From: an uncultured Bacteroides sp.
Lineage (GTDB): Bacteria > Bacteroidota > Bacteroidia > Bacteroidales > Muribaculaceae
Reading direction: 5' to 3'
Length of the DNA: 64,000 nt
NCBI GenBank assembly: GCA_964582335.1
Contig: CAZORI010000004.1
Location: 23,953 to 87,952 of the forward strand
Shown piece after piece: positions 18,493 to 37,309 of the stretch. The position numbers and the translations under genes were made by a program. Each line of letters begins with the position of its first letter. The first letter of the stretch is position 1. The notes beneath the pieces were generated by a model. It did not search any database, was not told the DNA's origin, and saw nothing but the letters and a program-made list of their open reading frames with translations.

Positions 18493-18540
18493 CGATGTAA
18501 TCTTAAGCAAACATATACTTAATTGTTAAATCGATATACA

Positions 18541-19536
18541 ATGGTAAATTACAAAGACCTCGGCCTGGTGAACACTCGCGACATGTTTGCCAAAGCCATC
18601 AAGGGCGGCTATGCCATCCCCGCTTTCAACTTTAACAATATGGAGCAGCTTCAGGCTATCATCAAGGCTGCTGCCGAAGAGAAGTCGCCAGTGATCCTCC
18701 AAGTGTCGAAAGGCGCTCGCAACTACGCCAACGCCACTCTGCTTCGCTACATGGCTCAGGGCGCTGTTGAATACGCTAAGGAGCTGGGCTGGGAAAATCC
18801 CCAGATCGTGCTCCACCTCGACCACGGCGACAGCTTCGAGCTCTGCAAGAGCTGCATCGACATGGGCTTCTCGTCGGTGATGATCGACGGCTCACACCTC
18901 CCCTACGAGGAGAACGTTGCCCTCACAAAGCAAGTTGTTGACTACGCTCACCAGTTCGACGTAACCGTAGAAGGCGAGCTCGGCGTGCTGGCTGGCGTTG
19001 AGGACGAGGTTTCCGCTGACCACCACACATACACCGACCCCGAAGAGGTGGTTGACTTCGCCACCCGCACCGGATGCGACAGCCTCGCCATCAGCATCGG
19101 CACATCGCACGGCGCCTACAAATTCACTCCTGAGCAGTGCACACGCGACGCCAACGGCAAGCTCGTGCCCCCGCCATTGGCATTCAACGTGCTCGACGCC
19201 GTTATGGAGAAGCTCCCCGGCTTCCCAATCGTGCTCCACGGATCGTCGTCAGTGCCCCAGGAGTATGTCGACATCATCAACGCTCACGGCGGCAAACTGC
19301 CCGATGCAATCGGCATCCCCGAGGAGCAGCTCCGCAAGGCTGCCAAGAGCGCCGTATGCAAAATCAACATCGACAGCGACAGCCGTCTGGCCATGACAGC
19401 AGCTGTGCGTCTGGTGTTCGACGAAAAGCCCAGCGAATTTGACCCGCGCAAATACCTCGGCCCGGCTCGCAACGAAATGGAGAAGCTCTACAAGCACAAA
19501 ATCGAGAACGTGCTTGGCAGCAACGGCAAAGCATAA
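18541..19536 (+). CDS. fba: Class II fructose-1,6-bisphosphate aldolase
   Basis: LHLDHG, SSVMIDGSH, VEGELG, IGTSHGAYK, VLHGSS and KINIDSD motifs. Confidence 0.97.
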   Translation: MVNYKDLGLVNTRDMFAKAIKGGYAIPAFNFNNMEQLQAIIKAAAEEKSPVILQVSKGARNYANATLLRYMAQGAVEYAKELGWENPQIVLHLDHGDSFELCKSCIDMGFSSVMIDGSHLPYEENVALTKQVVDYAHQFDVTVEGELGVLAGVEDEVSADHHTYTDPEEVVDFATRTGCDSLAISIGTSHGAYKFTPEQCTRDANGKLVPPPLAFNVLDAVMEKLPGFPIVLHGSSSVPQEYVDIINAHGGKLPDAIGIPEEQLRKAAKSAVCKINIDSDSRLAMTAAVRLVFDEKPSEFDPRKYLGPARNEMEKLYKHKIENVLGSNGKA

Positions 19537-19567: not shown

Positions 19568-19606
19568 GGCAGGCACGCCCTCGCGGCGCGCCTGCCTATT
19601 TTTTTT
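19568..19606 (+). terminator. Terminator after fba
   Basis: GGCAGGC-A-CGCC...GGCG-C-GCCTGCC stem followed by a T8 run. Confidence 0.85.
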
Positions 19607-19666: not shown

Positions 19667-19674
19667 TATCTTTG
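19667..19674 (+). promoter_or_regulatory. -7 box (TATCTTTG) for the nuo-atp-nuo unit
   Basis: Consensus match after the fba terminator, ~140 nt before nuoA. Confidence 0.75.
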
Positions 19675-19813: not shown

Positions 19814-20194
19814 ATGACATCTTTAGCAATTTTTGGAGTAGAAAACAGCGGGGTGCTTGCCCTGGTGGCTCTTATCACCGGCATTGCTCTCGTGGCTCTG
19901 GCATTGTGGATCGCGGGCCTGATTTCGCCCTCGTCATTCAACCCACAGAAGGGACAGCCCTACGAATGCGGCATCCCCACGCGCGGCGAAAGCATGGCGC
20001 AGTTCAACGTAGGCTACTACTTGTTTGCAATCCTGTTCTTAATGTTCGACGTCGAGTGCGTTTTCCTGTTTCCTTGGGCCGTAATCATGCGCGACCTGGG
20101 AGCCACCGGCATCATCAGCATCGCCGTTTTCTTCTGCATTTTAGTGCTGGGCCTCGTATACGCCTGGCGGAAAGGAGCGCTTGAATGGAAGTAA
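19814..20194 (+). CDS. nuoA: NADH-quinone oxidoreductase subunit A
   Basis: 'PYECG' loop, 'YYLFAILFLMFDVE' and 'YAWRKGALEW'. Confidence 0.97.
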   Translation: MTSLAIFGVENSGVLALVALITGIALVALALWIAGLISPSSFNPQKGQPYECGIPTRGESMAQFNVGYYLFAILFLMFDVECVFLFPWAVIMRDLGATGIISIAVFFCILVLGLVYAWRKGALEWK

Positions 20195-20793
20195 CAACGA
20201 AAAGCATGCCTTACGACGCATGGAAAGATAACGAATACATAGAAAAACTCGTAAAGGAACTTCAGGAGTCGGGCACAAACGTCGTAGTCGGCACCTTTGA
20301 CAAGCTCATCAACTGGGGCCGAAGCAACTCTCTGTGGCCTCTGACGTTTGCCACAAGCTGCTGCGGCATCGAGTTCGTTTCGCTCGGCGCAGCCCGCTTC
20401 GACATGGCGCGCTTCGGATGGGAAGTGGCGCGCTCAAGCCCACGCCAGGCCGACTTCATGATGGTGGCCGGCACGATTGTCAATCGCATGGTGCCAGTGT
20501 TCCGCCGCCTCTACGACCAGCTGGCCGAGCCTAAATACGTGATTGCCTGCGGCAGCTGCGCCATCTCGGGCGGCCCATTCCGCAAGAGCTACCATGTGGC
20601 CAAGGGCATCGAGGACATCGTGCCCGTGGATGTGTACGTGCCTGGCTGCCCGCCGCGCCCCGAAGCCATGATTTACGGAATCATGCAGCTCAGCCGCAAA
20701 ATCAAAGTTGAGCAATTCTTCGGACACGTCAACCGCAAGCAAAAGCAAGAGGAATTCCTGCGCGAGCACCCCGTGCCAGGCGCAGAGGATTGA
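20185..20793 (+). CDS. nuoB: NADH-quinone oxidoreductase subunit B
   Basis: TSCCGIE, SPRQAD, GSCAISGG and PGCPPRPE (N2 cluster ligands). Confidence 0.97.
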   Translation: MEVTTKSMPYDAWKDNEYIEKLVKELQESGTNVVVGTFDKLINWGRSNSLWPLTFATSCCGIEFVSLGAARFDMARFGWEVARSSPRQADFMMVAGTIVNRMVPVFRRLYDQLAEPKYVIACGSCAISGGPFRKSYHVAKGIEDIVPVDVYVPGCPPRPEAMIYGIMQLSRKIKVEQFFGHVNRKQKQEEFLREHPVPGAED

Positions 20794-20849
20794 CCTCAGC
20801 TACCGACTCAGTATCACTAATTTTGTAGAATCCTCCAAACACCATCATA

Positions 20850-22481
20850 ATGGCAAACGTTCAGGAAAAAATTGCCAGCCTGTTTCCCCAGGCCACATTC
20901 ACCGAGGCCGATGTGCTGCAAGTCAACATCGACGACGCTAATTGGCACGATTTGGCCAAGGCGCTGCGCCACGATCCCGAATTGGACTACGACTATCTCA
21001 TCACAATAGTCGGCATGGACTGGCAGACAGAACTCGGATGCGTTTATTACATGATGTCGACCAATCGAGGCAACGACGTTATATCTGTAAGAGTGGCCAC
21101 AGCCGACCGCGACAAGCCTATGCTACACTCAATCCATGACCTGTGGGCAGTGGCTACGCTCTACGAGCGCGAAGTGTACGACTTCTTCGGAATCGTATTC
21201 ATCAACAACCCCGACATGCGCCGCCTGTTCCTCAACATCGACTGGGTGGGATATCCGCTGCGCAAAGACTACGACCAAGACCCGGCCCTCAACCCCATCA
21301 GCATCGAGAGCGAGCGCCAAAGCGACTTCACCGACACCTGGGTGGAAGAGGCCGACGGCAAAGTGGTGAAGAAGGAAGAGCGCATATTCCAGCCCAACGA
21401 CTTCGTAATCAACATAGGCCCGCAGCACCCGTCGACCCACGGCGTGCTTCGCTTCCGCACATGCCTCGACGGCGAGACCATCAAGAAAATCGACGTGTAC
21501 ATGGGATATATCCACCGTGGCGTCGAGAAGCTCTGCGAAGGCCTCACATATCCGCAGACTCTCCACTTCATGGACCGTCTCGACTATTTCTCGGCACACA
21601 ACTACCACCATGGCTTGTGCCGCGTGATTGAGCGCGCTGCAGGCATCCAAATCAGCCGCCGCGCCGAGGTGATTCGCGTGATGATGGACGAGCTGTCGCG
21701 CATCGCCTCGCACTGCCTGTTCATGGGCACGTTCTGCATGGACCTTGGCGCCACCACAATGCTGTTCTACACGCTGCGCGTGCGCGAGCAGATTCTCGAC
21801 ATCATGGAGAAGACCTGCGGCGCCCGCATGACATTCAACTACGACTGCATCGGCGGCGTGATGCAGGACCTCGCGCCCGACTTCCAGGCCGACGTGAAGG
21901 CTCTGCTCGCAGTACTCCCCGCCAACATCAAGGAGTACAACAAGATATTCGTTGGCAACGTGATTGCCAAGGAGCGCATGGTGGACGTTGGCCACCTCTC
22001 GCGCGAAGACGCAATATCCTACGGCGTGACAGGTCCTTCGGGCCGCGCATCAGGCTGGAGCTGCGACATCCGCAAGATTCGCCCCTACAGCATCTACCCC
22101 GAACTCGATTTCGACGAGGTGCTTGCCACCGAGGGCGACGCTATGGCACGCTTCAAGGTGCGCCTGGCTGAAATAGAGCAAAGCGCGAAAATCCTGGCTC
22201 AGCTTGTCGACAACATCCCCGATGGCGAATATTGCGTAAAGGTGCCCAAGATGCTAAAGCTGCCCGTCGGACACTGGTTCGAAATGGTGGAGGGCTGCCG
22301 TGGCGTGTTCGGCGTTTACCTCGAGAGCGATGGCAACACCAAGCCCTACCGCCTGAAGCTGGTGCCTCCTTGCCTGCCGCTGGCCGGCGTGGTCGACCAC
22401 ATCACCGAAGGCATGAAGATCGCCGACCTTATCACCATTGGAGGTTCGCTCGACTACATCATCCCCGACATGGACAGATAA
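20850..22481 (+). CDS. nuoCD: Fused NADH-quinone oxidoreductase subunit C/D
   Basis: NuoC 'YEREVYDFFGI...GYPLRKDY'; NuoD 'GPQHPSTHGVLR', 'GYIHRGVEK', 'RLDY' and 'DYIIPDMDR'. No NiFe CxxC motifs. Confidence 0.97.
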   Translation: MANVQEKIASLFPQATFTEADVLQVNIDDANWHDLAKALRHDPELDYDYLITIVGMDWQTELGCVYYMMSTNRGNDVISVRVATADRDKPMLHSIHDLWAVATLYEREVYDFFGIVFINNPDMRRLFLNIDWVGYPLRKDYDQDPALNPISIESERQSDFTDTWVEEADGKVVKKEERIFQPNDFVINIGPQHPSTHGVLRFRTCLDGETIKKIDVYMGYIHRGVEKLCEGLTYPQTLHFMDRLDYFSAHNYHHGLCRVIERAAGIQISRRAEVIRVMMDELSRIASHCLFMGTFCMDLGATTMLFYTLRVREQILDIMEKTCGARMTFNYDCIGGVMQDLAPDFQADVKALLAVLPANIKEYNKIFVGNVIAKERMVDVGHLSREDAISYGVTGPSGRASGWSCDIRKIRPYSIYPELDFDEVLATEGDAMARFKVRLAEIEQSAKILAQLVDNIPDGEYCVKVPKMLKLPVGHWFEMVEGCRGVFGVYLESDGNTKPYRLKLVPPCLPLAGVVDHITEGMKIADLITIGGSLDYIIPDMDR

Positions 22482-22521
22482 CATACAATAGACCAACCAT
22501 TAAGACAAAACATACCATATC

Positions 22522-23619
22522 ATGACACCATTGGTAATTGACAATTTTGCTGTTGTAAGCGAGGCGGTGCACAGTTTCTTGCTCACCACTCTTGGCCTGC
22601 CTTCGTGGCTTGCCATCACACTCGAGTGCGTAGCCTTAGGCATCGGACTCCTTTTGGTGTATTCGATACTTGCGCTGTTCTATATATTATATGAGCGTAA
22701 AATATGCGCGTACTTCCAGTGCCGCGTAGGCCCGGTGCGCGTAGGCCCGTGGGGTCTCCTGCAGAGCGTTGCCGATATGTTCAAGATTCTAATCAAGGAG
22801 CTCATCCACCTCGACCACATCGACAAGTTCCTATTCGCTCTGGCCCCCTACTTGGTGATTTTGGCTTCGATGCTTGCGTTTGCAGTGCTGCCCTGGGGCA
22901 ACGGCATACAAGTGATCGACTTCAACATAGGCATATTCTTCCTTATCGCTGTCAGCAGCATCGGCGTGCTGGGCATCCTGCTCGCCGGTTGGTCGTCCGA
23001 CAATAAGTTCACTCTTGTCGGTGCTCTGCGCTCTGGCGCGCAGATGGTCAGCTACGAGCTATCCATCGGCCTGTCGGTGATCACCATGGTGTGCTTGGCT
23101 GGCACTATGTCGGTAAGCGGAATCGTGGCTGAGCAAAGCGACCTTTGGTTCATATTCAAGGGCCACATCCCCGCCATCATCGCTTTTGTGATATACATGA
23201 TTGCGGCCACCGCCGAAACGAATCGCGGCCCGTTCGACTTGCCCGAGGCTGAGAGCGAGCTCACCGCCGGCTACCACACAGAGTATTCTGGCATCCACTT
23301 CGGCTTCTTCTACTTGGCCGAATACCTCAACCTCTTCATCGTGTCGGGCGTGTCGGCCATGCTGTTCTTCGGAGGCTGGCAGCCGCTTCACATCCCCGGC
23401 TGGGACGGCTTCAACCATATCATGGACTTCTGCCCGTCGATCATCTGGTTCCTGCTGAAGTGCTTCGTGCTCAGCTACGTAATCATTTGGTTCAAATGGA
23501 CATTTCCGCGCTTGCGCATCGACAACTTGCTCGCCCTCGAATGGAAATACCTGCTGCCCATCAACCTATTCAACCTGGTGCTGATGGCTCTGGTAATCGT
23601 GATGGGCTGGCATCTTTAA
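22522..23619 (+). CDS. nuoH: NADH-quinone oxidoreductase subunit H
   Basis: '[14 protein letters not shown]', '[13 protein letters not shown]' and '[24 protein letters not shown]'. Confidence 0.97.
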
Positions 23620-23666
23620 TCTCTCTCTCCCGAATCCAACTTTACAACAATATTCACTATTACTAA

Positions 23667-25178
<1,512 letters not shown>

Positions 25179-25202
25179 TAACACCTTAACCAATTCACTC
25201 CA

Positions 25203-25439
25203 ATGACTCTTAAGATCATCTCGGCACACGAAATAGTGTATGAGGGCGCGTCCAAAAGCGTGACTCTGCCCGGCACACTGGGCGCATTCACGGTGCTTGA
25301 CCGCCATGCATCGCTCATATCCACGCTCACAAAGGGCAAAATCAGCTACACCGACATGGAAAATGACGAGCATGAGATTGAGATTCCGGGCGGATTGGCC
25401 GACATCGACAACAATGTGGTGTCGGTGTGCATATATTGA
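25203..25439 (+). CDS. atpC: F1 subunit epsilon (N-terminal beta domain only)
   Basis: 'LPGTLGAFTVLDRHASLISTL'; 78 aa; follows atpD. Confidence 0.92.
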   Translation: MTLKIISAHEIVYEGASKSVTLPGTLGAFTVLDRHASLISTLTKGKISYTDMENDEHEIEIPGGLADIDNNVVSVCIY

Positions 25440-25465
25440 TGTTTAACACGGCCTCAAGTTAGTTT

Positions 25466-26629
25466 ATGAAACGATTGATTTACATAATAGGGTTGGTTCT
25501 GTTGCTGACGGTTCCCTCGCTGGCCCGCGCCATGGCGCCTGCGCTTGCGGCTGAGTCGACAGCCTCGGAAGAAGCCCAGACTGAAAGCCCGGTCAATGCC
25601 AAGGAGATAATCTTCGAGCACCTGGGCGATGCCTACGGCTGGGAAGTGCCGTTCAATCATCATGTGCGCATCCCTCTGCCAGTCATTGTCAGGGACCATG
25701 CCGGCCACTGGCACTGCTTCTCATCGGCGCGCGTGCATTTTCCAAGCGAAACGGAGGCATACGGTGCGCCCTACACATCTGGCGACGCCACCTTTGCAAT
25801 AGCCGGATACGGCAGCGAGCACAAGGGCAAGGTGGTGCAGATGCTTCCAGGCGGCGCCGAATACCGCCCGCTCGACATCTCTATCACCAAGAATGTGGCA
25901 GCCCTGTTCATATCAGTCATCCTGGTGGCTGGCCTCATGCTCTGGCTGGCATCGTGGTACCGCCGCAAAGGCTTCAAAGCTCCGAGCAAAGGCCTGGGCG
26001 CTATCGAAGTGGTGGTGCAGTTCGTGTACGACGGCGTGGTGAAAAGCACGCTCAAGGAGAATGCTCCGCGCTTTGCGCCCTACCTTATGACTGCTTTCTT
26101 CTTTATCCTCGGCATGAACTTGCTGGGCCTAATCGTGATATTCCCGGGCGGCGCCAACCTTACGGGCAACATCGCCGTGACGCTGGTGATGGCGGTGCTT
26201 ACGTTCTTTGTGACCAACCTATTCGGCACCAAGGAATACTGGAAGGAGATTTTCTGGCCTGATGTGCCGCTGTGGCTCAAGTGTCCGCTGCCCATCATGC
26301 CGGTGATTGAAGTGTTCGGCATGTTCACCAAGCCGGCGGCCCTCACCGTGCGTCTGTTCGCCAATATGATGGGTGGCCACATGATAGTGATTGTGCTCAC
26401 TCTGCTCATCTTCATATTCTACTACATGAATCCGGTGGCAGGCGTAGGCACGGCTGTGATATCCATCACGTTCTCGGTGTTCATGCTCGTGATCGACGTG
26501 CTGGTAAGCTTCATTCAGGCATATGTATTCACTATGCTCTCCACGATTTTCATCTCGCTTGCCCAAGTGAAAGGCCACGGAGAAAGCCATGCCACGGTAG
26601 GCGAGAAAATTAAGGACGCACTGGTGTGA
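25466..26629 (+). CDS. atpB: Fo subunit a (Bacteroidetes form with N-terminal extension)
   Basis: 'DISITKNV', 'ANLTGNI', 'LTVRLFANMMGGH' (conserved Arg) and 'SFIQAYVFTMLS'. Confidence 0.96.
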   Translation: MKRLIYIIGLVLLLTVPSLARAMAPALAAESTASEEAQTESPVNAKEIIFEHLGDAYGWEVPFNHHVRIPLPVIVRDHAGHWHCFSSARVHFPSETEAYGAPYTSGDATFAIAGYGSEHKGKVVQMLPGGAEYRPLDISITKNVAALFISVILVAGLMLWLASWYRRKGFKAPSKGLGAIEVVVQFVYDGVVKSTLKENAPRFAPYLMTAFFFILGMNLLGLIVIFPGGANLTGNIAVTLVMAVLTFFVTNLFGTKEYWKEIFWPDVPLWLKCPLPIMPVIEVFGMFTKPAALTVRLFANMMGGHMIVIVLTLLIFIFYYMNPVAGVGTAVISITFSVFMLVIDVLVSFIQAYVFTMLSTIFISLAQVKGHGESHATVGEKIKDALV

Positions 26630-26683
26630 CCTCAACCATGAAATCAAACTACAAGAAATAAAAAAAATTAAATAATCAACTAA

Positions 26684-26938
<255 letters not shown>

Positions 26939-26959
26939 TCCTACGTAAGTTCTCGATCA

Positions 26960-27457
26960 ATGGAACTATTCACGCCTGACTTCGGCTTGATATTCTGGAT
27001 GTTCGTGTCGTTCGGCATCCTCTTCCTCATTTTGTGGAAGTGGGCGTGGCCGGCCATCCTCAAAGGCGTTGAAGCCCGAGCCGACATGATAGACAAGGGT
27101 GTGGAGTATGCGCAAAATGCCAAAGAGCAACTTGACAACGCCCACCTGGAGGCACAAAAATACATCAACGAAGCGCGCAAGCAGCAAAGCGACATGATGC
27201 GCGAGGCCGACAAGCTGAAGAACCAAATGGTGGAAGAGGCTCGCGCGGAAGCGCAAAAGGAAGCGCAAAAGGTGATGGAGCAAGCAAAAGTGTCCATCGC
27301 CCAGCAACAGAAGGAGGCTGAAGCCCAATTCCGCGACTCCGTGAGCGAATTCGCGCTGCAAATCGCGCAGAAAGTAGTGAAACAGCAGATGGCCGACGAA
27401 AAAGCACAGACAAAGCTCGTCGACAGCCTGCTCAATGAGATAGAAAGCAAAAACTGA
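26960..27457 (+). CDS. atpF: Fo subunit b
   Basis: 'PDFGLIFW' single TM, 'KWAWPAI...R' and a long coiled coil. Confidence 0.96.
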   Translation: MELFTPDFGLIFWMFVSFGILFLILWKWAWPAILKGVEARADMIDKGVEYAQNAKEQLDNAHLEAQKYINEARKQQSDMMREADKLKNQMVEEARAEAQKEAQKVMEQAKVSIAQQQKEAEAQFRDSVSEFALQIAQKVVKQQMADEKAQTKLVDSLLNEIESKN

Positions 27458-27462
27458 AAGAG

Positions 27463-28014
27463 ATGGATCAAGGACTAATACCCCGCCGATACGCCAAGGC
27501 GCTACTGGAGGTTGCCAACAACGCTGGTGAAGCGGCCAACCTCTACGCAAGCATGCAGAAGCTCGAAAGCGCCTTCCAGGCCGAGCCTTTGCTGGGAACG
27601 ACCGTTAGCAACCCGTTTGTGAGCGTCGCCGACAAATCTGCACTCATCAAATCGGCCATTGGTGCCGACAAGAGCGAGGGCATGGTGGACAACTTGCTGC
27701 GCGTGCTGGCCGAGAACAATCGCACTGGTATGGTCCGTGACATCGCGATCGCCTACATGCAGCTCTACCGCAAAACCAACGGCATATACCTGGTGCATGT
27801 GGAGGCTGCTGTCCCCATGAAGGCCGCCGAAGAGGAAAGGCTGAAGAATATAATCGAAGCGCACCTCAAGGGAGGCACCATGGAATACTCTTTTTCAGTG
27901 AATCCCGACCTGATAGGAGGCTTCGTTATCACTGTCGACAACGAACGCCTCGACGCCTCAGTGAAAAATGAATTGAAACAACTACGTTTGAAATTACTTA
28001 GCAACAAGCAATAG
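27463..28014 (+). CDS. atpH: F1 subunit delta
   Basis: 'RRYAKAL', 'ENNR', 'VNPDLIGGFV...DASV'. Confidence 0.95.
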   Translation: MDQGLIPRRYAKALLEVANNAGEAANLYASMQKLESAFQAEPLLGTTVSNPFVSVADKSALIKSAIGADKSEGMVDNLLRVLAENNRTGMVRDIAIAYMQLYRKTNGIYLVHVEAAVPMKAAEEERLKNIIEAHLKGGTMEYSFSVNPDLIGGFVITVDNERLDASVKNELKQLRLKLLSNKQ

Positions 28015-28020
28015 CATCAT

Positions 28021-29598
28021 ATGATAAACCCAAGCGAGATATCGCAAGTGCTGAAACAGCAACTCGAAAACGTCAACAACAAAGTCGATTTCGAGGAAGT
28101 TGGCACCGTGCTCGAAGTCGGCGACGGCGTGGCACACGTCTACGGACTGGACAATTTGCGCGCCAACGAGCTCGTAGAGTTCGAAAACGGCGTCAAGGGC
28201 GTAGCCCTTAACCTCGAAGAAAGCAACGTAGGTGTAATCTTGCTCAACAACGTCAACAAGGTGACCGAGAACATGACAGTGCGCCGCACTGGCGAGATCG
28301 CTTCTATCCCCGTTGGTGAAGGCCTGCTCGGCCGCGTAATCAACGTGCTGGGTGAGCCTATCGACGGTCGCGGACCTATCGAGGGCACGCTTGTCAACAT
28401 GCCTCTTGAGCGCAAGGCTCCCGGCGTGGTCTACCGCCAGCCCGTGAACCAGCCTCTGCAGACCGGCATCAAGGCAATCGACTCGATGGTGCCCATCGGT
28501 CGCGGACAGCGCGAACTTATTATCGGCGACCGCCAGATCGGCAAGACGGCAATTGCCATCGACACTATAATCAACCAACGTGCCAACTACGAGGCCGGAA
28601 AGCCCGTGTACTGCATCTATGTGGCCATCGGACAGAAAGCATCGTCGGTGGCTGCCCTCGTCGACACCCTGCGCCGCTACGGAGCGCTCGACTACACCGT
28701 GGTGGTTGCAGCCACAGCAGCCGACTCGGCTTCGATGCGCTACTATTCGCCGTTTGCCGGAGTGGCCATCGGAGAGTATTTCCGCGACACCGGCCGCGAC
28801 GCACTCATCGTATACGATGACCTCTCAAAGCAGGCTGTCGCATACCGCGAAATATCACTGATTCTGAAGCGCCCCTCCGGACGCGAAGCCTACCCCGGCG
28901 ACATCTTCTACCTGCACTCGCGTCTGCTCGAGCGCGCAGCCAAAATCATCGACAACCAGGAGATTGCATCGAAGATGAACGACCTGCCCGCCGTGCTCAA
29001 GGACCAAGTGAAGGGTGGCGGCTCGCTCACAGCGCTGCCTATCATCGAGACGCAGGCCGGTGACGTGTCGGCTTACATCCCCACCAACGTGATTTCGATC
29101 ACCGACGGACAGATATATCTGGAGACTGCGCTCTTCAACCGTGGCATCCGCCCGGCCATCAACGTGGGCATCTCGGTGTCGCGTGTGGGCGGCAACGCTC
29201 AAATCAAGTCGATGAAGAAAGTGGCCGGCACGCTCAAGATTGATCAAGCGCAGTTCAGAGAGCTCGAAGCCTTCACCAAATTCGGCGGCGACATCGACCC
29301 CGTCACCGCCCGCGTTATCGACAAGGGCCGCAAGAACGAGCGTCTGCTCATCCAGCCCCAATACCACCCGGTGGAGGTGGCCGACGAGGTGGCTCTCATC
29401 TACTGCGGCGTGAACGGACTGCTCGGCAACGTGCCACTCGACAAGGTGAGCGAATTCGAGAAGCAGCTGCTGCAACTGCTGCACGCCCGACACAAAGACG
29501 ACGTGCTCGCCGTGATAGCCCAAGGCAAGCTCACCGACGACGTCACAGCCAAGCTCACAGCAGCCGCTGCTGAGGTGGCCGGCGCATTGGCCAGCTGA
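28021..29598 (+). CDS. atpA: F1 subunit alpha
   Basis: [14 protein letters not shown], '[22 protein letters not shown]' and '[10 protein letters not shown]'. Confidence 0.99.
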
Positions 29599-29648
29599 CA
29601 ACAACGCTAACAAGAAACAACTAACCCGCTAACATCAACAGTCAATCG

Positions 29649-30533
29649 ATGGCAACATTACGAGAATTAAAAGGCCGCATAGGTTCAGTGGGCTCCTCGG
29701 AGAAAATCACTGGAGCGATGAAGATGATCTCATCAGCCAAGATGCACAGGGCTGAGAGCGAATTTAGGCGCTTGCTGCCCTTCCGCAACCAGATTGAGTC
29801 AATCATTGCCAACTTGCTGAGCGCCGACGCTACGTTCTCGTCGCCCCTGACTGAAGAGGTTCCTGTAAGCAAAATTGCTATTGTAGTGCTCGGCAGCGAC
29901 GATGGTCTCTGCGGAGCCTACAATATCAATATATTCAAGTTCTTGAAACAGCACATCAGCGAACTGCGCGCAACATACGGCGACAACGCCGACATCACCA
30001 TCGTGCCCGTGGGCCGGAAGATGGTGAAGGCTGTAGCCAAACTCGCTGACGAGCATACGCAAGTCGCACCCGACGCCGACGTGAATTCGAAAAGCGACGG
30101 GCAAGCGCTTAATGATTTCAACAAACGCATAGTGGAGGCCTTCGTGTCGCACGAATTCAACAAAGTAGATGTCGCGTACATGAATTTCCTATCGCTTAGC
30201 CGGCAGAAACCGCGAGCCGACCAGCTGCTGCCTATTTCTGCGGCAGCCCTCAGCGAATACAAGAAAGCTGGCTCCGCGCGCCCTTACATATTTGAGCCAA
30301 GCCCCGATGTGATATTCAAGACGGTGATGCCCATGTACGTGCTATCGACGGTGCAGGAGGTGTTTGCCGAAAACAGAGTGTCGGAGCAGGCAGCTCGCGT
30401 GATGGCAATGCAGAGCGCCAACGACAATGCCAAGAAGCTGCTCGAACAGCTGCAGCTCGAATACAACAAGCTGCGCCAGCAGAGCATCACCAACGAGCTC
30501 CTCGACATCGTAGGCGGCCAAGCGCGCGACTAA
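29649..30533 (+). CDS. atpG: F1 subunit gamma
   Basis: 'KITGAMKMISSAK', 'SDDGLCGAYN' and 'YNKLRQQSITNELLDIVGG'. Confidence 0.98.
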   Translation: MATLRELKGRIGSVGSSEKITGAMKMISSAKMHRAESEFRRLLPFRNQIESIIANLLSADATFSSPLTEEVPVSKIAIVVLGSDDGLCGAYNINIFKFLKQHISELRATYGDNADITIVPVGRKMVKAVAKLADEHTQVAPDADVNSKSDGQALNDFNKRIVEAFVSHEFNKVDVAYMNFLSLSRQKPRADQLLPISAAALSEYKKAGSARPYIFEPSPDVIFKTVMPMYVLSTVQEVFAENRVSEQAARVMAMQSANDNAKKLLEQLQLEYNKLRQQSITNELLDIVGGQARD

Positions 30534-30576
30534 AACAGAAAATAAATCAATACAATATACACAGAAACTTCCAATC

Positions 30577-31338
30577 ATGGGTAACGTTAAAGATTACTTC
30601 AAATCACTTGGCTCCGGCATGGTGAGTCTGCTTAAAGGCCTCCAGGTAACGGGCAAGGAATTAGTAACACCTAAAATTACAGAGTTCTACCCAGAGGATC
30701 GCGACACGCGCAAGCCTCCAAAGCGATTCCGCGCCATACTCGAACTTAAATACGATGCCGAGGGCAACCACAAATGCATAGCCTGCGGCACTTGCGAGCG
30801 TGTATGCCCCAATGGCACCATCACCCTCGAAACCAAGATGGTCGACACCTGGGATGGCCGGAAAAAGAAGAAACTCGACAAATATCTCTACGACCTTGGC
30901 AGCTGCACATTCTGCCAGCAATGCGCCACCAACTGCCCTACCAACGCGCTCGACTTCAGCAACGACTTTGAGCAGGCAGTGTTCACGCGCGATGTCTTGA
31001 TCAAGCAGCTCAACTATCTGCCCGAAAAGCCCGAGCCCGAGCCCACCGAGGAGGAGAAAGCCAAGCTGCTGGCCGAGAAGGAGGCCAAGATAGCAGCCGC
31101 TAAAGCTGCTGCCGCCGCCAAAGCAAAGGCTGCCGCCGCTAATGCCCCTGCTGCAGCCGGCGCCGCCCCTGCAGCGGCCGCTCCCACAGTTGACGCCAAG
31201 ACCCAGGCAATCCTCGACAAGGCCAAGGCAGCCGTGGCTGCCGCAGCCACCGACGAGGAAAAAGCCGCAGCTCAGGCCAAGCTCGACAAAATCGAGGCAG
31301 CCCTGCGCGCCAAGGCAGCCCGCGACGCAAAAGCATAA
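30577..31338 (+). CDS. nuoI: NADH-quinone oxidoreductase subunit I (2x[4Fe-4S]) with long Ala/Lys-rich C-terminal tail
   Basis: CIACGTCERVCP and CTFCQQCATNCP ferredoxin motifs, followed by ~105 aa of low-complexity tail. Confidence 0.95.
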   Translation: MGNVKDYFKSLGSGMVSLLKGLQVTGKELVTPKITEFYPEDRDTRKPPKRFRAILELKYDAEGNHKCIACGTCERVCPNGTITLETKMVDTWDGRKKKKLDKYLYDLGSCTFCQQCATNCPTNALDFSNDFEQAVFTRDVLIKQLNYLPEKPEPEPTEEEKAKLLAEKEAKIAAAKAAAAAKAKAAAANAPAAAGAAPAAAAPTVDAKTQAILDKAKAAVAAAATDEEKAAAQAKLDKIEAALRAKAARDAKA

Positions 31339-31372
31339 ACCTAAAACGAAATAAAAAAAACCAATTTATCAT

Positions 31373-31882
31373 ATGGATTCAGTAGGAAGTATCATTCTGT
31401 ACGCAATCGTCGCTCTGGTGATGATTGTGTTCTCGGTACTCACTGTCACCACGCGCAAGATCCTGCGCGCAGCCACATTCTTGCTGTTCACCCTGTTCGG
31501 CGCAGCCGTGCTCTACTTCATGCTCGGCTACGAATTCCTGGGCGGCGTGCAAATCGCGGTTTACGCCGGCGGCATCGTTGTGCTCTTTGTCTTCTCGATT
31601 TTGCTGACGACAAAGCCCGGTGACAATTCCGAGAAACTCACCTCTAAATCGCGTGTGTTGGGCCTGGTAGCCGCCGTGGCCATGTTCTGCTTCGCAGGAT
31701 ATGCTTTGGCGATTCGCCTGGGCAGAGCTGCTATGCCGGCCATGGAGCCACAGACGATGAAGCAAATCGGAGCCACCATGATGGGCACCGGACACGCGCA
31801 GTATTTGCTCCCCTTCGAGGCGGTGAGCATTTTGTTGTTGGCATGTATAATCGGCGGTGTCGTCATCGCCCGCAAACGTTGA
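31373..31882 (+). CDS. nuoJ: NADH-quinone oxidoreductase subunit J
   Basis: 'EFLGGVQIAVYAGGIVVLFVF' and 'LLPFEAVSILLLACIIG'. Confidence 0.96.
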   Translation: MDSVGSIILYAIVALVMIVFSVLTVTTRKILRAATFLLFTLFGAAVLYFMLGYEFLGGVQIAVYAGGIVVLFVFSILLTTKPGDNSEKLTSKSRVLGLVAAVAMFCFAGYALAIRLGRAAMPAMEPQTMKQIGATMMGTGHAQYLLPFEAVSILLLACIIGGVVIARKR

Positions 31883-31889
31883 TAGGACC

Positions 31890-32201
31890 ATGGAGATACG
31901 ACTAATTTGGTGGTTGATTCCCACACTCATCATGTTCTGCTGCGGCGTATACGGCTTTATCACGCGCAAGAACATGATCGCCATGCTGATTTCGCTTGAG
32001 TTGATGCTCAACTCAGTCGACATCAATTTTGCGCTCTTCAATCGCTACCTTTACCCTGGCGAGATGGAGGGCATGTTTTTCACCTTGTTCGCGATAGCAA
32101 TCGCAGCCGCAGAGACGGCTCTTGCAATCGCCATCATCATCAACATCTACCGCTCGGTGGGAAATGTGAATGTGCAGGGGCTTGATACAATGAAATTTTA
32201 A
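31890..32201 (+). CDS. nuoK: NADH-quinone oxidoreductase subunit K
   Basis: 'RKNMIAMLISLELMLNS' and 'AIAAAETALAIA'. ATG at 31890. Confidence 0.95.
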   Translation: MEIRLIWWLIPTLIMFCCGVYGFITRKNMIAMLISLELMLNSVDINFALFNRYLYPGEMEGMFFTLFAIAIAAAETALAIAIIINIYRSVGNVNVQGLDTMKF

Positions 32202-32216
32202 AAGTGCTTTGAGTCT

Positions 32217-34157
32217 ATGAGTCCCGTAATACCTCTTTTGATTCTGGTCATCCCGTTGTTCATGTTCTTGCTGCTTGGCATCGCCGGCTGCAAGATGAGC
32301 CACAAGCTGGCAGGATGGCTCGGATGCCTGGGCTTGGGCACTACCACTGTGCTCGCCTATTTCACGGCTTTCACCTACTATTTCGACCCTGCCTACGTAG
32401 CCGAAACCGGCGAGCGCCTGCAGACAATAATCTTCAACCAAACATGGCTTGAGTTCACCCAAACGCTGGTGATTAAGTTTGGCTTCCTGCTCGACCCCAT
32501 ATCGGCGCTGATGCTGATTGTGATCACCACGATTTGCTTCATGGTGCACATCTACAGCTTGGGCTACATGGAAGGCGAAAAGGGCTTCCAGCGCTACTAT
32601 GCATTCTTGTCGCTATTCTGCTTCTCGATGCTTGGCTTGGTGGTTGCCTCCAACATATTCCAGATGTACATCTTCTGGGAGCTTGTGGGCGCTTCGTCCT
32701 ACTTGCTGATTGGCTTCTACTACACTCGCCCGTCGGCTGTGTCGGCTTCTAAGAAGGCATTCATCGTAACCCGCTTTGCCGACCTCGGCTTCCTCATCGG
32801 AATTTTGATACTTTCTTATTATACACAAACATTCGACTTCATCACCCTCACCTCCAATCCGGGCGCAGTGCTTGCATCAACTGGCGGCGCCACATTCATG
32901 GGAGCATCGGTGCTCACATGGGCGCTTGTGCTCATCTACATGGGCGGCATGGGCAAATCGGCAATGATGCCTCTGCACATCTGGCTCCCCGATGCCATGG
33001 AGGGCCCCACACCGGTGTCGGCCCTTATCCACGCTGCCACCATGGTTGTGGCCGGCGTGTTCTTGGTGGCTCGCATGTTCCCGGTGTATCTGATGGAGTA
33101 TAGCGCCACTGTATTCATCGTGGTAGTGGGCGCAGTCACTGCATTCTATGCCGCAATGGTGGCATGCACGCAGATCGACATCAAGCGCGTGCTCGCATTC
33201 TCCACCATTTCGCAGATTGCATTCATGATGGTGTCGCTCGGCGTGGCCAGCAACGGCAACGGCGAGGTATGCCACCACGGCCTCGGCTACATGGCTTCGA
33301 TGTTCCATTTGTTCACGCACGCTATGTTCAAGGCTCTGCTCTTCTTGGGAGCCGGCGCTCTTATTCACGCAGTGCACAGCAACGACTACACAGCCATGCA
33401 CGGCTTGCGCAAATACATGCCTATCACTCACATCACGTTCCTCATTGGCTGCTTGGCAATCGCCGGCATCCCGCCTTTTGCAGGATTCTTCTCTAAGGAC
33501 GAGATTCTGAGCGCATGCTACGCTTGGAGCCCCTGGATTGGCATTTGGATGACGATGGTGGCAGGCCTCACCGCTTTCTACATGTTCCGCCTCTACTACC
33601 TCATCTTCTGGTGGAAGGAGCATGAGTGCCATCACGGCCATGCGCCTCACGAGGCTCCGCTGCCCATGCGCATTCCGCTCATCTTCCTCGGAGCTGTGTC
33701 CGTTGTAGCCGGCCTGGTGCCCTTCGGCCACTTCGTCACCTACAACCGCATGCCCTACGACATACACCTCGATTGGGCCATCGCCGGCACCAGCATCGCT
33801 GTGGCATGCGTGGCAATCTTCATCGCCTACCGCATGTACTGCCACCAGAACGAAGTTCCCGCCAAGATGAAGGCCGCCCTGCCTCGCCTATGGGATTGGT
33901 GCTACCATCGCTTCTACTGGGACGAACTCTATATGTTTGTCACACATAAGATTATATTCAATGGCATATGCCGCCCCATTGCATGGTTTGACCGCCATAT
34001 CATCGACGGCACCATGGACGGCTTCGCCATCATCACCAACAAAGCCTCCTACGCCATCCGTGGCTTGCAGAGCGGCCAAGTGCAGATGTATGTATGGATC
34101 TACCTCATCGGCGCGCTCATCCTTGGCGCTCTTGGCGTAGCGTTCGTGTTATGTTGA
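32217..34157 (+). CDS. nuoL: NADH-quinone oxidoreductase subunit L
   Basis: 'GKSAMMPLHIWLPDAMEGPTPVSALIHAATMV', 'LAFSTISQ' and 'HAMFKALLFL'. Confidence 0.97.
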   Translation: MSPVIPLLILVIPLFMFLLLGIAGCKMSHKLAGWLGCLGLGTTTVLAYFTAFTYYFDPAYVAETGERLQTIIFNQTWLEFTQTLVIKFGFLLDPISALMLIVITTICFMVHIYSLGYMEGEKGFQRYYAFLSLFCFSMLGLVVASNIFQMYIFWELVGASSYLLIGFYYTRPSAVSASKKAFIVTRFADLGFLIGILILSYYTQTFDFITLTSNPGAVLASTGGATFMGASVLTWALVLIYMGGMGKSAMMPLHIWLPDAMEGPTPVSALIHAATMVVAGVFLVARMFPVYLMEYSATVFIVVVGAVTAFYAAMVACTQIDIKRVLAFSTISQIAFMMVSLGVASNGNGEVCHHGLGYMASMFHLFTHAMFKALLFLGAGALIHAVHSNDYTAMHGLRKYMPITHITFLIGCLAIAGIPPFAGFFSKDEILSACYAWSPWIGIWMTMVAGLTAFYMFRLYYLIFWWKEHECHHGHAPHEAPLPMRIPLIFLGAVSVVAGLVPFGHFVTYNRMPYDIHLDWAIAGTSIAVACVAIFIAYRMYCHQNEVPAKMKAALPRLWDWCYHRFYWDELYMFVTHKIIFNGICRPIAWFDRHIIDGTMDGFAIITNKASYAIRGLQSGQVQMYVWIYLIGALILGALGVAFVLC

Positions 34158-34193
34158 ATACAGTGCTAATCCTCAATAAAAATTGATTCGAAA

Positions 34194-35696
34194 ATGTTTG
34201 CGAATATATTGATATACTTTGTGGTGATTCCCCTGCTGATGCTTGCAGGGCTCGCCCTCTGCCGCAATATCAAGCAAGTGCGCACTGTAGCAGTGGTAGG
34301 CTCGCTGGCCCTGCTGGCCCTATCGGTGTACGTGCTGTGCGAATATCTGTGCTTGCGCGCAGCCGGAGCTGATGCTCCAATGTTGTTCACTGGTTCTTGG
34401 GAATGGTTCACGCCGCTCAACATACACCTGGCCGTAGGAGTCGATGGCATATCCATAGCCATGCTCGTCCTATCGTCAATCATCGTGTTTGCCGGCTCTT
34501 TCGCCTCCTGGACCATAGCCATGCCCAAGGAATTCTTCCTTTGGCTCATCCTGCTGTCGACGGGCGTCTTCGGCTTCTTCATCTCAATCGACTTGTTCAC
34601 AATGTTCATGTTCTATGAGGTTGCGCTCATCCCCATGTACCTTCTTATCGGCGTGTGGGGCTCGGGACGCAAGGAATACTCAGCCATGAAGCTCACGCTG
34701 ATGCTTATGGGCGGCTCGGCATTCCTGATGCTTGGCCTCATCGGCATCTACTATCACAGCAGCGTCGGCGGCCAGCACACCTGGAATCTGCTTGAGATTG
34801 CTCAGAACAATGCCATCACCACCGGCTGGCAATACTTCCTCTTCCCCATGACGTTTGTCGGCTTCGGCGTGCTTGGCGCCATGTTCCCCTTCCACACATG
34901 GAGCCCCGACGGTCACGCATCGGCCCCCACAGCAGTGTCGATGCTCCACGCCGGCGTGCTCATGAAGCTCGGCGGCTACGGATGCTTCCGCGTGGCTATT
35001 TACCTGATGCCCCAGGCTGCCAGCGACCTGGCATGGATTTTCTTGATTCTAACAGGCATCTCGGTGGTATACGGCGCATTCAGCGCATGCGTGCAGACTG
35101 ACCTCAAATACATCAATGCCTATTCGTCGGTGTCGCACTGCGGCCTGGTACTCTTCGCCATCCTCATGCTCAACACCACGGCAATGACCGGCGCAATCAT
35201 GCAGATGCTCTCGCACGGCTTGATGACAGCCCTCTTCTTTGCCCTCATAGGCATGATTTACGGACGCACCCACACTCGCGACATCCGCGAAATGGGAGGC
35301 TTGATGCAGATTATGCCTTATCTGGCCGTATGCTACGTGATTGCCGGTATGGCATCGCTTGGCTTGCCTGGCCTCAGCGGCTTCGTGGCTGAGATGACTA
35401 TCTTCATCGGCTCGTTTGAGCATGCCGACATGTTCCACCGCATATTCACGATTGTGGCTTGCACATCAATCGTAATCACAGCAGTCTACATCCTGCGTGT
35501 TGTGGGCAAGCTCCTCTTCGGCCCAGTGCAGAACGAACACCACCGCGAGCTCACCGACGCCACATGGTGGGAGCGTCTCTCTACCGTGACCCTTATCGTG
35601 GGCGTGGCCGCCATAGGCTGCTTCCCCAATTTCTTCGAAGGCCTCATCCGCACCACCTTCTCGCCTACGATATTTACAGTATTAGGACTGAACTAA
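34194..35696 (+). CDS. nuoM: NADH-quinone oxidoreductase subunit M
   Basis: 'FYEVALIPMY', 'FPFHTWSPDGHASAPT', 'KLGGYG' and 'LGLPGLSGFVAE'. Confidence 0.97.
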   Translation: MFANILIYFVVIPLLMLAGLALCRNIKQVRTVAVVGSLALLALSVYVLCEYLCLRAAGADAPMLFTGSWEWFTPLNIHLAVGVDGISIAMLVLSSIIVFAGSFASWTIAMPKEFFLWLILLSTGVFGFFISIDLFTMFMFYEVALIPMYLLIGVWGSGRKEYSAMKLTLMLMGGSAFLMLGLIGIYYHSSVGGQHTWNLLEIAQNNAITTGWQYFLFPMTFVGFGVLGAMFPFHTWSPDGHASAPTAVSMLHAGVLMKLGGYGCFRVAIYLMPQAASDLAWIFLILTGISVVYGAFSACVQTDLKYINAYSSVSHCGLVLFAILMLNTTAMTGAIMQMLSHGLMTALFFALIGMIYGRTHTRDIREMGGLMQIMPYLAVCYVIAGMASLGLPGLSGFVAEMTIFIGSFEHADMFHRIFTIVACTSIVITAVYILRVVGKLLFGPVQNEHHRELTDATWWERLSTVTLIVGVAAIGCFPNFFEGLIRTTFSPTIFTVLGLN

Positions 35697-35716
35697 ACCC
35701 CAAAGATTGAAACGCA

Positions 35717-37228
35717 ATGGATTACTCACAATTTTTGGCAATGAAGCAAGAGATAGGATTGCTTGTGGCATTCCTGTTGGTCTTCTTGTATGACATATGC
35801 ATTCCCCAGTCGGGCAGCGACGATGTGCAGCCCGACGGCACCGTGGCACGCTGCAGCTGCGGCAAGGGTTTGCCCTGGTTTGCAGCCCTGTTGATGCTTG
35901 TGCTCACCGTAGGAGGCTTCTGCCCATGCTGGCTTGGCACCGGCCATGAATCCGCATTCGCCGGCATGTACGAGTCTTCGCCTGTGATATGCGCCATCAA
36001 GAGCATCCTCAACATCGGCGTGGTGATAGTGCTCGTGCAATCGGCCAGCTGGGCTAATAGCCAGCCCATGCTCGTGCGTCGTGGCGAATTCTACCAGTTG
36101 CTGCTTGTGACGCTCTTCGGCATGTACATGATGATTTCAGCGCGCCACTTCCTGCTCTTCATTATCGGCCTCGAAAGCGCATCCCTGCCCCTGGCAGCAA
36201 TGGTGGCACTCGACAAAAACCGCTATGAGAGCCACGAAGCTGCCGTGAAATACATTCTCACTGCAGTGTTCTCATCGGGCATATTCATGATGGGCTTGTC
36301 ATTCGTATACGGCCTCACCGGCTCGCTCTACTTCGAGAACATTTACCTTGGCCTCGTAGGCCAGCACAGCACTCTACTGTGCATAGCGCTCGCATTCGTC
36401 ATCGCAGGCGTAGGCTTCAAGCTTTCGCTCGTGCCTTTCCACTTGTGGACGGCCGATGTTTACCAAGGCGCGCCCACTTCTGTCACCTCCTACCTGTCGG
36501 TAATCAGCAAGGGCGCAGCTGCCTTCGCCTTCATGGTGATTCTGGCTCAGGCTTTCGGCATGCTCTACCACCAAGTGTGGGAGTGGATGCTCTACATCCT
36601 TATTATCCTCACCATAACAGTCGGCAACCTTTTCGCCATACGCCAGCGCAACATGAAGCGCTTCCTGGCATTCTCGTCGATTTCGCAGGCCGGCTACATC
36701 ATGCTCGGCATCATCGGCTTCAACGCCATGGGCGTGGCAGCCATGATGTACTACATCCTGGTGTACATATTCAGCAACTTGGCTGCCTTCGGCGTGATTG
36801 GCGCCATAGAATATGCCACTGGCCGCGTGAGCATGGACGACTACAAAGGCTTGTACAAGACAAATCCGCGCTTGTCGTTTGCCATGATGCTGGCTATGTT
36901 CTCATTGGCAGGCATCCCGCCCTTCGCCGGATTCTTCTCGAAATTCTTCGTCTTCACAAGCGCCATCGACCAGGGCTCAATCGCCATCTACGTGCTTGTG
37001 CTCATAGCGTTGATCAACACGATTGTATCGCTTTACTACTATCTGCTGGTGGTAAAGGCTATGTTCATTAGCCCCGACGACTGCGTTATCCCCAACTTCC
37101 GCTCTACGTGCGCTGAGCGCTTGGGCCTGTGGATTACGGTGGCCGGCATCATCGTGCTTGGCATATTCAGCCCGATTTACAACTGGCTGCTCGACATATG
37201 CCAGAGCATGGGCTACATATTCTATTAA
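35717..37228 (+). CDS. nuoN: NADH-quinone oxidoreductase subunit N
   Basis: 'HEAAVKY', 'FKLSLVPFHLWTADVYQGAPT', 'KRFLAFSSISQAGY' and 'AGIPPFAGFFSK'. Confidence 0.97.
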   Translation: MDYSQFLAMKQEIGLLVAFLLVFLYDICIPQSGSDDVQPDGTVARCSCGKGLPWFAALLMLVLTVGGFCPCWLGTGHESAFAGMYESSPVICAIKSILNIGVVIVLVQSASWANSQPMLVRRGEFYQLLLVTLFGMYMMISARHFLLFIIGLESASLPLAAMVALDKNRYESHEAAVKYILTAVFSSGIFMMGLSFVYGLTGSLYFENIYLGLVGQHSTLLCIALAFVIAGVGFKLSLVPFHLWTADVYQGAPTSVTSYLSVISKGAAAFAFMVILAQAFGMLYHQVWEWMLYILIILTITVGNLFAIRQRNMKRFLAFSSISQAGYIMLGIIGFNAMGVAAMMYYILVYIFSNLAAFGVIGAIEYATGRVSMDDYKGLYKTNPRLSFAMMLAMFSLAGIPPFAGFFSKFFVFTSAIDQGSIAIYVLVLIALINTIVSLYYYLLVVKAMFISPDDCVIPNFRSTCAERLGLWITVAGIIVLGIFSPIYNWLLDICQSMGYIFY

Positions 37229-37272: not shown

Positions 37273-37309
37273 GATGTCCTTGACCTGGGAAGGCCAAGGA
37301 CATCTTTTT
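37273..37309 (+). terminator. Terminator of the nuo-atp-nuo unit
   Basis: GATGTCCTTG...CAAGGACATC 10-bp stem followed by TTTTT. Confidence 0.85.

Follow-up and report, generated by a model that had tools for sequence, protein, structure and literature searches.

An F-type ATP synthase integrated in the complex I locus has been reported for the S24-7 group or 'Ca. Homeothermaceae', the family now called Muribaculaceae (Ormerod et al., 2016, Microbiome 4:36, PMC4936053). In the passages of that paper that concern the locus, it is given one sentence, with no insertion point, transcription signals or range outside the family. Here we analyse a further member of this kind of locus, found in a 64,000-nucleotide (nt) stretch of DNA (the window; all coordinates are positions in it) from contig CAZORI010000004.1 (positions 23,953 to 87,952, forward strand; assembly GCA_964582335.1) of an uncultured Bacteroides sp. 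that GTDB places in the Muribaculaceae. It belongs to the same family as the published locus and encodes, judging from the same passages, the same 11-subunit complex devoid of NuoE, NuoF and NuoG. The eight genes of the ATP synthase lie as one block between nuoH and nuoI, giving the 18-gene order nuoA-B-CD-H / atpD-C-B-E-F-H-A-G / nuoI-J-K-L-M-N, all on the + strand, as established from the list of open reading frames (ORFs) and Pfam scans (Table 1). We are rather confident that the Muribaculaceae have this as their standard respiratory locus, passed on by vertical inheritance, derived from one move of the atp block and most likely read as one transcript. Beyond those passages of the 2016 paper, the present analysis contributes the exact site between nuoH and nuoI, six more families including that of Coprobacter, evidence for a single origin, and a hairpin that follows atpG in sister families.

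The two components have separate counterparts in other Bacteroidales. The canonical nuoA-B-CD-H-I-J-K-L-M-N operon, as in Bacteroides and Prevotella, has the same subunits in the same order, with the same fused nuoCD and likewise no nuoEFG, but in the window 6.9 kb of atp genes separate nuoH from nuoI. Free-standing atp operons of the order, atpD-C-(x)-B-E-F-H-A-G, contain these eight genes, likewise in the unusual order that begins with beta and a short epsilon, and their long a subunit shares a signal-peptide-like N-terminus; atpDCBEFHAG operons of this kind are present in neighbouring canonical families. Unlike the block of the window, they have a TAnnTTTG promoter box of their own no more than 400 nt upstream of atpD (5 of the 6 canonical genomes examined), and one of them ends in a strong terminator 3' of atpG. 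They may also include a small membrane gene, x, that separates atpC from atpB; it is absent from the window, as it is from family f7. As a separate observation, the canonical atp loci of the order (L185-L189) vary in gene order: a 139-aa membrane ORF separates atpC from atpB in one family, another has the order ...atpA-atpG-atpD-atpC, and in three families atpD-atpC is followed by no other atp gene within ca. 7.5 kb downstream.

A preliminary description of the window had given the gene order, spacers of 56 and 43 nt at the two junctions that lack any hairpin, TAnnTTTG box or repeat scar, a single upstream -7 box and a strong terminator at the end. ORF, Pfam, motif, folding and repeat checks agree with all of these points, the gene order being exact to the base, and none of 200 shuffled versions of the downstream terminator folds equally well. 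A genome search found nuo and atp to be single-copy in the source genome (one nuoH, one atpD/atpA set). The same description had implied that the nested order is rare or new, with the caveat that it might be typical of the lineage, and here it was the caveat that held. A scan of public genomes with NuoH as the query returned 80 related loci at 76-84% identity, mostly titled Muribaculaceae, Duncaniella or Paramuribaculum, together with some records of metagenome-assembled genomes under other family labels. The order nuoA-B-CD-H-atpD-C-B-E-F-H-A-G-nuoI-J-K-L was found in every one of the 80, as far as each contig reaches, among them the closed chromosomes CP061009.1 and OX620685.1. In 150 Muribaculaceae genomes, which represent 35 genera, atpD is found a few tens of bases from nuoH on a shared contig and strand; the exceptions are few (e.g., G199, G118, G164, and G143) and in these the match abuts a contig end. 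The adjacency is also found in congeners of the source genome. The nested layout is the normal, inherited arrangement of the Muribaculaceae, and the window's membership of this family is supported both by the titles of the nearest loci and by its position inside the clade on the two trees described below. Topic searches of the literature on Muribaculaceae ATP synthase and nuo or complex I operons returned no description, and the layout is nonetheless already in print and family-typical, as the sentence of Ormerod et al. (2016) makes plain; this takes away the novelty of the arrangement and leaves the observation as it was.

Such recurrence also bears on the idea that the locus is a chimeric join made during assembly. 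The source genome is a draft (2.2 Mb in 85 contigs, 96.7% complete), in which an artefact of this sort could arise. However, both junctions are found in 94 independently assembled loci, closed chromosomes included, and the GC content stays even over the two of them. We have rejected misassembly, which the preliminary description had named as a possible refutation, and consider its probability negligible.

The nested order extends beyond the family. In a sample of 301 Bacteroidales genomes, the DNA 3' of nuoH was inspected wherever the NuoH match was good. All 13 genomes sampled from six additional GTDB families (coded f27, f61, f78, f102, f103, and f132) proved to be nested, whereas in 85 genomes of all the other families nuoH was directly followed by nuoI, which is the adjacency that had been claimed as the usual state elsewhere. 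A smaller sample, in which 24 other families were represented by a single genome each, showed no nesting; it was too thin and is superseded by these figures. One of the nested genomes, from family f61 (a closed contig of 3,444,538 bp), encodes a NuoH that matches the protein entitled 'MULTISPECIES: NuoH [Coprobacter]' with 100% identity, and because of this identity Coprobacter can be taken to share the nested layout. Used as a gene-order character, the nesting sets apart a clade that comprises seven or more Bacteroidales families.

Two trees of genes of the locus, which are not species trees, speak to how this came about. In a maximum-likelihood tree of NuoH, NuoI, NuoJ, and NuoK (109 rows), the 26 nested rows all fall on one side of a single branch (Shimodaira-Hasegawa-like approximate likelihood ratio test support of 99), so one change of state is enough. 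In the AtpD tree (27 nested and 24 canonical rows) all nested rows again lie on one side of a single branch, with a support of 100. The closest canonical families, f7, f20, and f18, are identical in both, and this agreement indicates that a resident atp operon moved, rather than a foreign one having been captured. In the common ancestor of a Bacteroidales clade that comprises the Muribaculaceae together with the family of Coprobacter and five or more other GTDB families, the resident atpD-C-B-E-F-H-A-G operon would have moved as one block into the nuoH-nuoI spacer of a cluster coding for the 11-subunit, NuoEFG-less enzyme. A single origin of the nesting is evident from both trees, and the explanation built on it is held with good confidence; since both are gene trees, the block as a whole may still have passed from one lineage to another at a later time.

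The preliminary description had spoken of an atp operon captured intact that lost its own promoter. The intact move and the loss of the promoter are still the best reading, as the order of the block has been kept and the box found upstream of free-standing atpD is lacking here; the trees point to a resident operon. The view that a mobile element recently brought a foreign atp operon into the source lineage found nothing in its favour and sits poorly with several results: there is no repeat or insertion sequence (IS) scar at the junctions, and no direct or inverted repeats pair one junction with the other; the atp genes are the sole copy in the genome; the AtpD tree matches that of the nuo genes; and the nested clade, with its seven families, must be old. 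On the absence of scars and the concordant trees we have rejected this explanation as highly improbable.

Whether the merged locus is also one unit of transcription was approached through a survey of TAnnTTTG boxes, as consensus motifs only, across 94 nested loci. Of 84 nested loci, 88% have a box in the 300 nt that precede nuoA; for the 150 nt that precede any internal gene the share is at most 7%, with atpD at 6% of the 94. The nuoH-atpD spacers contain one in 2% of cases and the atpG-nuoI spacers in 1%; in the window neither spacer has a box. The median lengths of these spacers are 46 and 50 nt, respectively. They are 67-71% A+T (mean of 67% for nuoH-atpD), similar to the ordinary nuoCD-nuoH spacer, and those of the window fold worse than shuffled sequence (z score of +1.7 for junction 1 and +1.3 for junction 2). 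A k-mer search over the nested loci detected no conserved motif in either spacer, whose sequences are not conserved. The window does contain internal + strand boxes beside gene starts, at 20818 and 27983, and two further ones inside nuoL, at 32474 and 33932. The two at 20818 and 27983 were rejected as internal promoters and are best seen as chance matches, because only 1-2% of the relatives have boxes there. In the window as a whole there are 45 TAnnTTTG matches on both strands against 24.7 +/- 4.9 in shuffled sequence, mostly intergenic, as expected for Bacteroidetes promoters.

In the Muribaculaceae, the atp block possesses neither a promoter box nor a terminator that belongs to it alone, and in the window terminators border the 18-gene unit on both sides. 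For this reason, transcription of the 18 genes most likely begins at the nuoA promoter and runs to the terminator past nuoN, which is our best reading, based on sequence motifs, for the source genome. A proton pump that reduces quinone and an ATP synthase driven by protons would then be regulated jointly. Co-transcription and whatever advantage it may confer are inferences. Two considerations weigh against it. Promoters that deviate from the TAnnTTTG consensus, or that lie inside coding sequence, would escape our scan. In addition, a hairpin with a 7-12-bp stem (10-12 bp in six of the seven cases) and a T-rich tail stands directly 3' of atpG in 7 of the 13 sister-family loci (L084, L087, L088, L090, L091, L094, and L096), Coprobacter being among these sister families, so that the locus may not be one simple transcript, at least there. 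Such a hairpin was found in only 1 of 65 Muribaculaceae loci, and none follows nuoH in the 13 sister-family loci.

In a rival view, the layout is conserved without being a single operon, with non-consensus promoters or RNA processing giving separate nuoA-H, atp, and nuoI-N messages, and the nesting itself a neutral frozen accident. The terminator-like structures after atpG in the sister families agree with this, as does the lack of sequence conservation in the spacers; a sigma-70-type scan gave 19 weak matches against 12.6 +/- 3.8 expected, which is not above chance and leaves room for weak starts. However, separate messages would require a promoter for nuoI-N, of which there is no conserved trace; boxes near either junction occur in 1-6% of the nested loci against 88% upstream of nuoA; and the Muribaculaceae junctions resemble ordinary spacers within an operon in length, composition and lack of hairpins. 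We regard this explanation as unlikely. The post-atpG hairpin looks like the old atp terminator, which may have been kept in the sister families and erased in the Muribaculaceae. One message of ca. 17.6 kb would then be the end state of a stepwise merger, a proposal that we advance tentatively, at slightly less than an even chance. A literature search for Muribaculum transcript data gave nothing relevant.

Some species appear to have dispensed with the locus altogether. Protein searches showed that NuoH, NuoCD, AtpD, and AtpA are all missing in four species of the source genus (G012, G004, G007, and G015), one of which, G012, is 99% complete. What these congeners keep is a weak P-loop match, also present elsewhere in the source genome, and no V-type ATPase subunit turned up in them in the AtpA search, so they may be devoid of any rotary ATPase. 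In these cases the nested block has been lost as one piece. The same loss is mentioned for genome H5 in the relevant part of the paper by Ormerod et al. (2016).

With regard to the encoded enzymes, the nuo cluster comprises 11 subunits and is 'headless', that is, without nuoE, nuoF, and nuoG. The electron donor of such headless enzymes is probably reduced ferredoxin or flavodoxin and not NADH. A search of the whole 96.7%-complete genome for PF01512 (Complex1_51K, NuoF/RnfC) gave no match, while control genomes responded, and it seems from this that the source genome lacks both NuoF and the Rnf complex; the headless nuo enzyme would be left as a candidate route of ferredoxin re-oxidation. NuoI has a low-complexity C-terminal tail of ca. 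110 residues, rich in Ala, Lys, and Glu (PEKPEPEPTEEEKAK...AAAKAAAAAKAKAAAA..., residues ca. 145-253, window 31009-31338). NuoI of nested loci measures 148-390 aa, with a median of 209; most sister families have a NuoI of ca. 150 aa, and in canonical families the median is 160 aa. Long forms also occur in a few unrelated families. Among the NuoH-like proteins, one of 501 aa (P0105, from an ENA contig) is ca. 140 aa longer than a normal NuoH. It aligns locally at 69% identity over 94% of the query, with a nearly full bit score, and may be a fusion or have a mis-called start.

All eight subunits of the F1Fo ATP synthase (alpha, beta, gamma, delta, epsilon, a, b, and c) are recognized by their domains (PF00006/PF02874/PF00306, PF00231, PF00213, PF02823, PF00119, PF00430, and PF00137). 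Na+-translocating F-ATPases such as that of Ilyobacter tartaricus have a characteristic set of binding residues in the c subunit. This set is missing here (no Gln in helix 1, no Ser/Thr and Tyr after the carboxylate), and from this the enzyme is probably proton-driven. The a subunit, AtpB, has 387 aa, with a signal-peptide-like start (MKRLIYIIGLVLLLTVPSLARA) and ca. 140 extra residues before the Pfam ATP-synt_A domain (residues 1-146, window 25466-25900); the extension is also found in free-standing operons of other families (L184, L185). With regard to the physical complex I-ATP synthase assembly that the preliminary description had raised as a possibility, neither a fusion protein nor an extra linker gene was detected in the locus among the ORFs and Pfam matches.

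Table 1. Genes, blocks, and signals of the nested nuo-atp locus and its borders (positions in the 64,000-nt window).
Feature	Position	Strand	Basis or description
fba (class II aldolase), upstream neighbour	18523-19536		Pfam
fba terminator, 5' edge of the unit	19568-19600	+	GC-rich hairpin and T8 run, -25.5 kcal/mol, z -2.9
Bacteroidetes-type -7 promoter box TATCTTTG	19667-19674	+	ca. 140 nt 5' of the nuoA start codon
nuoA-nuoH block, first half of the complex-I-like enzyme	19814-23619	+	Pfam
nuoA	19814-20194	+	PF00507
nuoB	20185-20793	+	PF01058
nuoCD, fused	20850-22481	+	PF00329+PF00346
nuoH	22522-23619	+	PF00146
Junction 1, nuoH-atpD spacer	23620-23675	+	AT-rich, 56 nt, without structure or promoter box
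Complete F1Fo ATP synthase block, atpD-atpG	23676-30533	+	Pfam
atpD (beta)	23676-25178	+	Pfam
atpC (short 78-aa epsilon)	25203-25439	+	Pfam
atpB (a)	25466-26629	+	Pfam
atpE (c)	26699-26938	+	Pfam
atpF (b)	26960-27457	+	Pfam
atpH (delta)	27463-28014	+	Pfam
atpA (alpha)	28021-29598	+	Pfam
atpG (gamma)	29649-30533	+	Pfam
Junction 2, atpG-nuoI spacer	30534-30576	+	43 nt, AT-rich, no hairpin, no promoter box
nuoI-nuoN block, second half of the complex-I-like enzyme	30577-37228	+	Pfam
nuoI	30577-31338	+	Pfam
nuoJ	31373-31882	+	Pfam
nuoK	~31890-32201	+	Pfam
nuoL	32217-34157	+	Pfam
nuoM	34194-35696	+	Pfam
nuoN	35717-37228	+	Pfam
Intrinsic terminator closing the unit	37273-37309	+	hairpin 37273-37304, 10+3 bp stem, then UUUUU; -20.9 kcal/mol, z -3.7

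The Muribaculaceae rank among the most abundant bacteria in the gut of mice and occur commonly in other animals. The nested locus does not represent a new kind of system, and the evidence drawn from its sequence reaches at most as far as shared regulation. It nevertheless brings together in one place the only rotary ATP synthase and the only complex-I-like pump, and some species have discarded it whole. The shared locus thereby offers a clean genetic way to ask if these fermenters respire, as the deletion of one promoter would remove both. If the message of ca. 17.6 kb is real, the sole ferredoxin/quinone-linked proton pump of the cell would be coupled to its sole ATP synthase, in synthesis as well as in loss.

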